DNA from: Anaeromyxobacter sp. | Lineage (GTDB): Bacteria > Myxococcota > Myxococcia > Myxococcales > Anaeromyxobacteraceae | NCBI GenBank assembly: GCA_049840735.1 | Contig: JASGJN010000007.1 | Coordinates: 96,001-160,000, forward strand | Length of the DNA: 64,000 nt | Direction of reading: 5' to 3' | Shown: one piece after another, positions 32,705 through 35,700 of the stretch | How positions within the stretch are numbered: position 1 is the first letter of the stretch | Layout: each line of letters starts with the position of its first letter | Notes under the pieces: generated by a model | Databases searched by the model: none | Seen by the model: the letters and a program-made list of their open reading frames with translations, nothing else | What the model was told of the DNA's origin: nothing | Translations under genes and position numbers: made by a program

Positions 32705-35700
32705 CTACGCCAGCGCCGAGACGAGCTTGAGCTCGCGCGACTCGTGCTCGGCGATGCGGGTGGCGATGGCCCCCGCCAGCTGGCCCAGGTCGCCCGGGGT
32801 CATCCCGTGCGGCGACTTGGTCCGGTCCACCAGGCTGGCCACCAGCTTGAGGATCTCCTGGTGCTCCTCGATGAGCCGGGAGATCTCGGTGCGCCGCTCG
32901 GGGTCGCGCGAGCCCAGGATGCCGTAGAGCCCCTTGGCGTGCTCCTCGTGCGCGAAGTGCTCGCGGAGCGCCTGCGACAGCTCGTCCAGCGCGGCCGCCA
33001 GCGCGGCCGGGTCGGTGGCCCCCTGCAGCCGGTGGGTCAGCGCCTCCAGCCGGTGGTGGTCCTCCTCGATGGCCCGCTGCACCTGCTCGGCGCCGTGGGT
33101 GGGGCCGCCGGCCCCCTCGGCGTGGAACTGCGCCTTCTCGGTGGAGCCCTCCAGCGCCAGCGTGGAGGCGGTGCCGCCGGAGACGGTCTGCGCCACCAGG
33201 TCGAAGTAGCCGACGCCCACCTCGCGCTGGTGCCGGGTCGCGCTGTAGCCCAGCTTCTCCGCCGCGAACTCGGCCTGCTGCAGCTCGGAGTAGGCGGCCA
33301 TGCCGCGGTCCTTGTAGCCGCGGGCCAGCTGGAACATCGAGAAGTTGAGGGCGTGGAAGCCGGCCAGGGTGACGAACTGGAACTTGTAGCCCATGGCGCC
33401 CAGCTCGCGCTGGTAGCGCGCGATGGTGGCGTCGTCGAGGTGCTTCTTCCAGTTGAACGAGGGGGAGCAGTTGTAGGCCAGGAGCTTGCCGGGGTGCTTG
33501 GCGTGGACCCCTTCGGCGAACTTCCGCGCGAACTCGAGGTCGGGGGTCTGCGTCTCGCACCAGACCAGGTCGGCGTAGGGGGCGTACGCCACGCCGCGGG
33601 CGATGGCCGACTCCAGCCCGCCCTTGAAGCGGTAGAAGCCCTCCGGCGTCCGGTCGTGGCGGTCGATGAACGGGGCGTCGTGGGGGTCGACGTCGCTCAT
33701 GATCAGGTTGGCCGACTCGGCGTCGGTGCGGGCCACCAGCACGGTGGGCACGCCCAGCACGTCGGCGGCCAGCCGGGCCGCGGTCAGGGTGCGCACGAAG
33801 GTGGAGGTGGGGACCAGCACCTTGCCGCCCAGGTGGCCGCACTTCTTCTCCGAGGCCACCTGGTCCTCGAAGTGCACGCCGGCCGCCCCGGCCTCGATCA
33901 TGGCCTTCATCAGCTCGTAGGCGTTGAGCGGGCCGCCGAAGCCGGCCTCGGCGTCGGCCACGATGGGCGCGAACCACCAGGTGCCGTCCTTGCCCTCGGC
34001 GTGCTCGATTTGGTCGGCGCGCTGGAAGGCCCGGTTGATGCGCCGCACGATCTCCGGGACCGAGTTGGCGGGGTAGAGGCTCTGGTCCGGGTAGGTCTGG
34101 GCGGCGGTGTTGGCGTCGGCGGCCACCTGCCAGCCGGAGAGGTAGATGGCCTGCAGGCCGCCCTTCACCATCTGCACGGCCTGGTTGCCGGTGAGCGCGC
34201 CCAGCGCGTGGATGTACGGCTCGGAGTGGAGCAGCGCCCAGAGCCGCTCCGCGCCCAGCTGGGCCAGCGTGTGCTCGACGCGGACGGTGCCGCGCAGCTT
34301 CTCGACGTCGGCCCGGCCGTAGCGCCGGAGGACGCCCTCCCAGCGGCGCGGGTCGGGGTGGTGGGGTGCGGGGGAGTCGGTGCCGTTGGCGTGGGTGGAG
34401 AGCATGCGTGCCCCCTCCTCTCGGGAGGCGTCCAGCAGGTCGTAAGCGGCCAGGGTGATGAACTCGGGGAACTCGGCGCCGGTGCTCATGCGCTCGAACA
34501 GGGTGCGGGCCTCGCCGAAGCGGCCCTCGGAGAAGCGCCGCTCGCCCACCTCGAGGCGGATGCGGTCCATCTCCTCGGCGAGCACGGTGCGGAACCGCTC
34601 GACGGTGAGCGGCTTGCCGTCGTCCAGCGTGACGCCGTGGTGGATCCACTGCCAGGCCAGGGCGCGCGAGATCTCGGCCGTGGCCGCGTCCTCCATCAAA
34701 TGGTAGAGCGGCACGCAGCCGGAGCCGCGCAGCCAGGCCTCGATGTACTGGACCGAGACGCGGATGTTGTGGCGCAGGCCGGCCTCGGTGCGGCTGCCCT
34801 CGGCGGGCCGCAGCAGGTCGCGGGCGGAGACCTCCACGTCCTCGCGCTTGCGCTCGAGCTGGTTCGCCCCCTTCATCCGCTCGTCGAAGATGGCCCTGGC
34901 CACCGGCACCAGGCCCGGGTGCGCCACCCAGGTGCCGTCGTGGCCGTCGGTCACCTCGCGCAGCTTGTCGGCGCGCACCTTGGCCAGCGCGGCCTCGCTG
35001 GCGGCCGGGTCGTCCTTGATCGGGATTTGCGCGGCCATGCCGCCCATGGCGTGGACGCCGCGGCGGTGGCAGGTGCGGATCAGCAGCTGCGTGTAGGCGC
35101 GCAGGAAGCCCTTGTCCATGGTGACCTGCCCGCGGTCGGGCAGCACCAGGGCCGGGTCGGCGCGGAAGCGCTTGATGTACGAGAAGATGTAGTCCCAGCG
35201 GCCGCAGTTGAGGCCGGCCGAGTGCTCGCGCAGCTCCCAGAGGAACTCGTCCATCTCGAAGGCGGCGGGGAGCGTCTCGATGAGGCAGGTGGCGCGGATG
35301 GTGCCGCGCGGCAGGCCGCGGGCCGCCTGGGCGTGGAGGAACACGTCGTTCCAGAGCCGCGCCTCGAGGTGGCTCTCCATCTTCGGCAGGTAGAAGTACG
35401 GGCCCGAGCCCTGCCCGAGCAGCGAGGTGGCGTTGTTCCAGAAGAAGACGCCGAAGTCGAAGAGCGCCGCGGTGGCGGGCTTGCCGTCCACGCGGCAGTG
35501 CTTCTCCAGCAGGTGCCAGCCGCGCGGCCGCACCATCAGCACCGCGGTGCGCTCGCCCAGCGCGTAGCTCTTGCCGGTGTCCGGGGCCACGTAGGTGATG
35601 GTGCCCTCCACCGCGTCGCGGAGGTTCACCTGGCCCTCGACCACGTTGCGCCAGGTGGGCGAGTTCGAGTCCTCGAAGTCGGCCATGAAGACGCTGGCGC

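Follow-up and report, generated by a model that had tools for sequence, protein, structure and literature searches.

Carbon flow into the glyoxylate shunt is usually controlled at the branch point by AceK, and RamB-type regulators and the acyl-CoA domain of ICL2 are further known control points. The two genes of the glyoxylate cycle have been fused independently three times, one of these fusions being that of Anaeromyxobacter dehalogenans (Kondrashov et al., 2006; PMC1630690). Hemerythrins that carry O2 bear the motif H-HxxxE-HxxxH-HxxxxD (PMC9388753), and the human iron-sensor hemerythrin domain uses two His per iron (four His in all) together with three Glu (PMC6993866) and is destabilised without iron (PMC13282663). 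We describe here a gene from Anaeromyxobacter sp. that encodes malate synthase (MS) A, isocitrate lyase (ICL) and a hemerythrin-like domain in one chain (MS-ICL-Hr). It lies in a stretch of 64,000 nt, hereafter called the window (assembly GCA_049840735.1, contig JASGJN010000007.1, positions 96,001 to 160,000 of the forward strand). The partnership between ICL and hemerythrin is real and conserved, is made of known parts, and is apparently undescribed.

MS-ICL-Hr is a single minus-strand gene for a protein of about 1110 aa. A first-pass annotation of the window had proposed that a hemerythrin-like domain is appended to ICL, and this is borne out: the frame is open from STEKAQF, at the end of ICL, to the TAG stop, and the tail exceeds the Pfam cut-off. 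The annotation had overlooked malate synthase A, which lies upstream in the same frame. The parts of the gene, numbered from the first nucleotide of the window, are as follows.

34433..36036, minus strand: malate synthase A, with start ATG 36036 after GGAGG (Pfam MS_N, MS_TIM-barrel and MS_C)
34370..34432, minus strand: in-frame linker between malate synthase and ICL (sequence)
Within that linker, minus strand: Shine-Dalgarno-like GAGGAG ahead of an in-frame ATG at 34402, not generally conserved
33125..34369, minus strand: short-type ICL, 415 aa (Pfam ICL)
33833-33847, minus strand: catalytic KKCGH of ICL (sequence)
33145-33125, minus strand: STEKAQF, the C-terminal end of ICL, through which the frame is open (sequence)
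33092..33124, minus strand: Gly/Ala/Pro-rich linker of 11 residues from the end of ICL to the hemerythrin domain (sequence)
32708..33091, minus strand: hemerythrin-like (HHE) domain, 128 aa (Pfam, AlphaFold model, conservation)
33056-58, 32957-59, 32945-47 and 32861-63, minus strand: candidate ligands H12, H45, E49 and H77 (conservation)
32744-46, 32741-43 and 32732-34, minus strand: candidate ligands H116, E117 and E120 (conservation)
32924-26, minus strand: Y56 of the hemerythrin domain, often conserved (conservation)
32707-32705, minus strand: TAG stop of MS-ICL-Hr (sequence)
32652..32680, minus strand: GC-rich hairpin past the stop codon, without a U-tract (read from the sequence)

The Pfam search that the annotation had suggested for the tail gave 46 bits with Hemerythrin (PF01814; cut-off 25.3, E 9.4e-12), and the tail carries the motif AEHESRE. 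Its GC content at codon positions 1/2/3 (0.79/0.43/1.00) resembles that of the ICL part (0.69/0.46/0.99). A survey of such fusions, also suggested there, found ICL and Hemerythrin in one chain in 73 of 84 database matches of 624-1988 aa; the remaining matches are one that ends inside the domain and 10 MS-ICL proteins without it. Fourteen of 24 same-genus genomes have the tail, and the fusion is intact in single-contig genomes too. The nearest proteins with a named source, P0006 and P0011, are from Anaeromyxobacter and have the same architecture, and one of them is encoded at 100% identity by a same-genus genome. A lost stop codon is excluded by the 73 fused database matches and the 14 genomes that carry the tail.

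The enzymatic parts of the chain show the expected signatures. The malate synthase A part holds the motifs RPRGW, IETLPA, NCGRWDY and EDAATAE; P0006 passes PRK15063 (755 vs 562 bits) and TIGR01344; and 57 of 59 full-length relatives have KKCGH. In 44 of 57 full-length relatives, STExxQF and the first His are 22 residues apart. In a genome search, the ICL part of MS-ICL-Hr was the sole ICL match in this genome. An internal start that would yield ICL-Hr alone was considered and rejected as not conserved, with a Shine-Dalgarno sequence and in-frame start in 8 of 22 linkers and at differing positions.

The ligand set given by the annotation, H / HxxxE / H / HxxxE, is intact, with its six residues present in 113 of 114 fused proteins, but the count was incomplete. 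A seventh conserved residue, a Glu, directly follows the last His, so that the pattern reads H-HxxxE-H-HExxE and comprises four His and three Glu (H12, H45, E49, H77, H116, E117 and E120). All seven are kept in 113/114 fused proteins that cover the sites, in 121/129 free relatives and in 31/31 free genes adjacent to aceA, the ICL gene. Helix 3 has one His (EEHQEIL) and helix 4 reads HESRE. The O2-carrier motif was not found in the domain, which scores 25 bits against a cut-off of 84 with the bacteriohemerythrin model NF033749 and 27.4 against 51.75 with TIGR02481; reversible O2 binding, which the annotation's suggestion of O2 as an input had implied, is thus not supported. The non-carrier ligand set and the FBXL5-like count of candidate ligands make the site resemble a sensor of iron or redox state more than an O2 carrier, and the domain would bind two irons.

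The AlphaFold model of the domain has four long helices (predicted local distance difference test score, pLDDT, 94). In a fold search the best matches (2p0n and DcrH 2avk; Z 13.5-13.6, root mean square deviation, rmsd, 2.5-2.8) were tied with designed bundles, a result that agrees with the hemerythrin class but cannot discriminate it from such bundles. Foldseek against the PDB returned generic bundles only and nothing at E <= 0.001, and further PDB profile searches gave no useful match. The best PDB sequence match (E 1.5e-5) is 3waq, a DcrH variant reading HEMKED (wild type HIMKED), which aligns to HExxE; in a study of DcrH mutants, the engineered Glu is said to bind the gas-binding iron. A predicted complex of two ICL chains, two Fe and the hemerythrin domain scored 0.01 without controls and is used neither for nor against contact. 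The AlphaFold model of an ICL-Hr monomer (predicted template modelling score, pTM, 0.66) has low confidence in the ICL arm and linker, and is uninformative because the C-terminal arm of ICL packs in the tetramer.

The genomic tie between hemerythrin and aceA is long-standing, the two being separate neighbouring genes in distant lineages and a C-terminal fusion in the family Anaeromyxobacteraceae. Within the family, the domain profile matches 38 of 92 genomes, in 7 of 11 genera, and the match is in the ICL frame in 37 of the 38. Thirty-one family loci with the domain were fetched. Nineteen are MS-ICL-Hr (three with local frameshifts), nine are ICL-Hr without MS at the locus, two have MS in another frame, and one has the domain alone; where MS is missing from an ICL-Hr locus, an MS match was present elsewhere in 5/5 genomes tested. 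Three proteins (P0021, P0037 and P0055) have 20-39 conserved MS positions changed with ICL and hemerythrin nearly intact, which points either to local frameshift errors or to decay of MS. Among 401 genomes drawn from the same phylum outside the family, 13 had a match: two are MS-ICL-Hr fusions in a single further family of this order, and the others are not beside ICL. Of 401 genomes drawn from the phylum to which genome G429 belongs, four matched, and none of the three fetched was beside ICL.

The closest relatives that stand unfused are about 140 aa long. Their loci were fetched by hemerythrin motifs only, giving 63 loci, 57 with a strong match. At 31 of the 57 an aceA gene lies upstream and ends at its own stop, in 30 cases within 10-44 nt of the match; in the other, from an Acidobacteria-titled record, one gene intervenes. 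None of the 57 is fused, 7 have too little upstream DNA and 19 have other neighbours. Many of the 31 aceA-linked loci are near-identical, and the tree collapses them to about six lineages; as metagenome contigs they come without taxonomy, so the evidence for breadth across phyla consists of two record titles and of ICLs that are 66-82% identical to P0006. All 23 matches of 369-2000 aa are ICL fusions, in a search that is weak by the tool's own account, and a name look-up of the clusters of 10 free relatives gave no informative names. Since the domain stays on ICL at the 9 of 31 family loci without MS and is a free gene behind aceA elsewhere, it is tied to ICL rather than to MS.

Two unusual loci belong beside these. 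One, in an Acidobacteria-titled record (L089, 5560-6429, plus strand), encodes a tandem two-hemerythrin protein of 290 aa behind aceB-aceA and a gene for 181 aa. The other (L135, 1-840) has the end of MS and the first ICL codons followed by the middle of a hemerythrin gene, and is probably a mis-assembled or deleted aceB-aceA-hemerythrin operon.

The trees of ICL and hemerythrin are broadly congruent, which indicates long joint inheritance. All ICL-linked hemerythrin copies fall in one hemerythrin clade (support 0.92), and most partner ICLs fall in one ICL clade (0.988), with six further loci outside it. Patristic distances in the two trees correlate with r 0.68 over 49 loci, a value reached in 0 of 2000 permutations; L088, which has no hemerythrin, and L056 were left out of this comparison. 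Long joint inheritance is expected of neighbours anyway, and so the congruence does not speak to binding. Since the trees are midpoint-rooted, we infer only tentatively that the genes were separate and then fused.

The setting of the gene includes a divergent regulator and a sequence box between the two.

36316..37735, plus strand: divergent RamB/PrpR (ScfR-family) regulator with C-terminal CxxCxxxxC and two frameshifts (Pfam ScfRs; NCBIfam RamB partial, below cut-off)
36177..36190, minus strand: conserved box TTTTCAAnnTTTAC between the two genes, a putative operator for the regulator

A RamB/PrpR-like regulator adjoins 25 of the 31 family hemerythrin loci; two contigs end too early, and four loci lack it. 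The box pattern TTTTCAAnnTTTAC recurs in 15 of 21 intergenic regions, and the genome as a whole contains one exact copy. A [4Fe4S] cluster with a possible role in iron sensing has been described in PrpR, to which the adjacent regulator is related (PMC6765138).

Relatives of the domain outside the ICL-linked clade have other partners. In five loci (L094 5971-11919, L092, L145, L155 and L174) sister-clade hemerythrins head operons for 2-oxoacid:ferredoxin oxidoreductase, which encode alpha and beta subunits, an 820-aa protein without a Pfam match and, in L092, an Fe-S protein. This context fits protection of an Fe-S enzyme or regulation of another carbon-branch enzyme. Two similar HExxE relatives are fused to GGDEF signalling domains, a context that fits sensing. 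In P0334 and P0297 a related hemerythrin is fused N-terminally to a domain starting ALEVNLRRTA.

To account for these observations we favour, at a probability of roughly 0.45, the view that the domain senses iron supply or redox state through a di-iron centre and would partner and tune short-type ICL. It would act in cis in the fused chain and in trans as a free protein, and it probably has a second target. E117 would take up the coordination position that binds gas in O2 carriers, so that the di-iron centre would report iron occupancy or the Fe(II)/Fe(III) state instead of carrying O2. Loaded and empty forms of the domain might then act differently on ICL, through a contact near the C-terminal arm or through the stability of the fused chain. 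The most plausible direction would be that shunt flux is favoured when iron is short; shunt expression has been linked to iron limitation (PMC11069385). Since the domain also functions when free and outlives its ICL, it probably has a second target and is probably not a hard-wired cis switch. A bolder form of the proposal, in which the di-iron protein directly throttles ICL according to iron or redox state, stood free behind aceA in several lineages and was later fused in Anaeromyxobacteraceae to give a one-chain iron-gated shunt with a mirror image of the FBXL5-like site, we regard as doubtful.

Several observations weigh against a sensor devoted to ICL. The proposal stands on sequence and genome context, and the putative role of E117 as an iron ligand leans on what the DcrH mutant study is said to have found and on the 3waq alignment. 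No ICL positions clearly track the presence of the domain, the differences being at the level of clades. This genome encodes AceK, as do 27 of 59 family genomes, and on the same ground we reject the domain as a substitute for AceK. On at least three occasions the domain has disappeared while ICL stayed intact, with remnants left in two cases. Conversely, the protein P0076 (L056 1107-4424, minus strand) is an MS-ICL-Hr in which KKCGH is gone and neither enzyme part reaches its cut-off. Its changed conserved positions number 35/232 in MS and 75/236 in ICL (110/468 in total), against 0/24 in hemerythrin (Fisher p 0.004); no hemerythrin ligand is lost, and nine indels have left the frame open. This is one event, and P0076 also has a long branch in the hemerythrin tree (0.51; sister branch 0.10). 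At L056 the regulator is gone, with no ScfR match in the genome, and a glyoxalase gene lies upstream of the fusion; the same genome also encodes a second malate synthase and a homologue of ICL2. In genome G075 (L068 3018-3500, minus strand) a lone domain of 161 aa with its own start, derived from the fusion, still sits beside a RamB-like regulator and the box at a locus without MS or ICL, and two database proteins group with it. Finally, 13 near-identical loci nested among the aceA-linked copies have no ICL nearby and lie beside a gene that we take to be tatD-like. Together these cases show that ICL does not need the domain and that the domain can persist in the absence of ICL.

The same retention where ICL has decayed or been deleted is what would be expected of the main rival, an autonomous di-iron protective protein of the acetate/RamB regulon that does not regulate ICL. 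Such a protein would remove H2O2, nitric oxide (NO) or nitrite near the catalytic cysteine of ICL, or would, like YtfE/RIC, deliver iron to the Fe-S enzymes on which the cycle depends (aconitase, fumarase). The five sister-clade operons for 2-oxoacid:ferredoxin oxidoreductase suit this role, characterised HHE proteins are described as repairing Fe-S centres or reacting with NO and peroxide (PMC6993866), and a protective association of catalase with ICL is known from a cited title. However, the extra Glu, often joined by Tyr56, would be expected to crowd a site of small-molecule turnover, there is no partner domain of the ScdA_N type, and this genome already has 20 other Hemerythrin matches. 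The fixed place right behind aceA suggests a role specific to ICL, and the oxidoreductase-linked copies fall outside the ICL-linked clade. We consider protection possible but rather unlikely. The first-pass annotation had pictured a tighter arrangement, a strict allosteric switch in cis in which binding of O2 or NO to the added domain would open or close the active site of ICL, as the acyl-CoA domain does in ICL2. The near-constant length of the linker to the ICL C-terminus would suit it, as would the control of ICL2 by a C-terminal domain on a flexible linker (PMC6788997) and the full-length ICL2 homologue carried by family relatives. Although its core, an HHE-type domain tied to ICL, holds, the O2-carrier motif is missing, and the switch is weakened by the widespread unfused form and by retention of the domain where ICL has decayed (P0076) or gone (G075); a gas switch of this kind seems improbable.

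Two further explanations leave sensing aside altogether. The domain could buffer a metal (Mn, Zn or Fe) or handle glyoxylate or another shunt metabolite, as might suit a Pfam family defined only as cation-binding and a stoichiometric co-expression with ICL that persists where the locus has no MS. Yet the model shows no substrate-binding extension, and the genomes without MS at the locus have another (5/5 tested), which makes this quite improbable. It could also be a passenger acquired through chance loss of a stop codon, or an artefact of assembly, and here one may point to the frameshifts in this assembly (at least four, in three neighbouring genes) and to loss of the domain in several lineages. 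Intact fusions elsewhere, in 73 database proteins and in single-contig genomes, refute the artefact, and with ligands that are nearly invariant and an adjacency to aceA that is conserved without fusion, the passenger is barely credible.

Within MS-ICL-Hr the frameshift affects the first 85 residues. A single open frame from 35785 to 32705 covers MS, ICL and the hemerythrin domain, and one base is missing near 35785, the gene spanning 1110 codons and a stop minus one base; residues 9-85 and 86-1105 of the intact relative P0006 align in two frames that join at 35785. This frameshift is probably an assembly error, since the neighbouring regulator (two, at 37270-37460) and an aminotransferase-like gene (at least one, at 41500) are also frameshifted, and single-base frameshifts in three genes of the window suggest an assembly prone to indels. 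Among public sequencing runs none shares half of the window's words (best 0.13), and the four that were aligned are contigs of relatives, which cannot speak to the frameshift, to expression or to habitat. The aminotransferase-like gene (40513-41711, plus strand), presumably for an alanine-glyoxylate aminotransferase, sits 4-5 kb from the fusion, and such a gene is near the fusion also in 8 of 40 related loci. A scan called neither a terminator, at the hairpin 32652..32680 or otherwise, nor a sigma-70 promoter. The window also holds a canonical bacteriohemerythrin gene (5087-5416, plus strand), and the genome has 21 Pfam Hemerythrin matches in all. A full-length ICL2 homologue is present in many family genomes as a second or alternative isoform, and in two of them a long gene of the ICL2 type lies about 12 kb downstream of MS-ICL-Hr (L055 near 19600; G007:C77 near 70100).

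A metal-binding partner behind aceA across distant lineages offers a small, soluble and testable handle on iron or oxygen input at the branch point. Named isolates carry the fusion (P0006 and P0011), and natural unfused, domain-less and enzyme-dead versions can serve as controls. If the proposal is right, a metabolic enzyme would join the short list of hemerythrin outputs and the family would gain a new ligand arrangement. The shunt rises under iron limitation in several bacteria, where its role is described as unresolved (PMC11069385), and a hemerythrin-type sensor on an enzyme of central carbon metabolism would give this link an explanation at the protein level. Should the domain be only protective, the addition would be modest.

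The architecture described by Kondrashov et al. (PMC1630690) for the MS-ICL of A. dehalogenans is the same in the Anaeromyxobacter proteins P0006 and P0011. The main text of that paper does not use the word hemerythrin, and the third domain and the unfused aceA-hemerythrin operons are not among the things it describes. Automatic labels do exist, two Joint Genome Institute (JGI) protein names reading 'isocitrate lyase/hemerythrin'; full-text searches of openly accessible papers turned up no title or abstract opening on a link between ICL and hemerythrin. With M. tuberculosis ICL2 (PMC6788997) the chain shares an ICL bearing an extra C-terminal domain on a linker. ICL2, however, is about 760 aa long with a helical insert and a GNAT-like acyl-CoA domain at its C-terminus, whereas here a short-type ICL of 415 aa is joined to an unrelated helical metal-binding fold. 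Allostery is known for ICL2; MS-ICL-Hr is known from its sequence.

Hemerythrin modules fused to catalytic or signalling domains occur also in DcrH, Bhr-DGC, Bhr-HD-GYP and the P1B-5 ATPase (PMC9388753). Unlike MS-ICL-Hr, the chimeric sensors in that review use H-HxxxE-HxxxH-HxxxxD or a close variant; the outputs it names are only chemoreceptors, c-di-GMP enzymes and ATPases, and the word 'isocitrate' is not found in it. The six-residue HHE core is the same in YtfE/RIC and in mycobacterial hemerythrin-like proteins (PMC6993866). YtfE itself gives a weak profile match (E 0.05) and a fold match (6q09, Z 11.9, rmsd 2.4 over 116 residues), but in contrast to YtfE/RIC the fusion has no ScdA_N domain in Pfam scans, its free relatives are about 140 aa long and there is an extra Glu. 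The spacing from the second His to the Tyr is 11 residues instead of 9, and some members have Phe or His in place of this Tyr.

FBXL5 and BRUTUS control ubiquitin ligases, whereas the present domain is partnered with a metabolic enzyme. Its extra Glu comes after the last His, that of FBXL5 after the second, and a sequence search with the domain gave no FBXL5 match at E up to 1. The count of four His and three Glu is nevertheless that of FBXL5 (PMC6993866), if E117 coordinates iron as its alignment with 3waq suggests. With BRUTUS, likewise a non-carrier di-iron fold, the domain shares the H-HxxxE-H-HxxxE core (PMC12022348).

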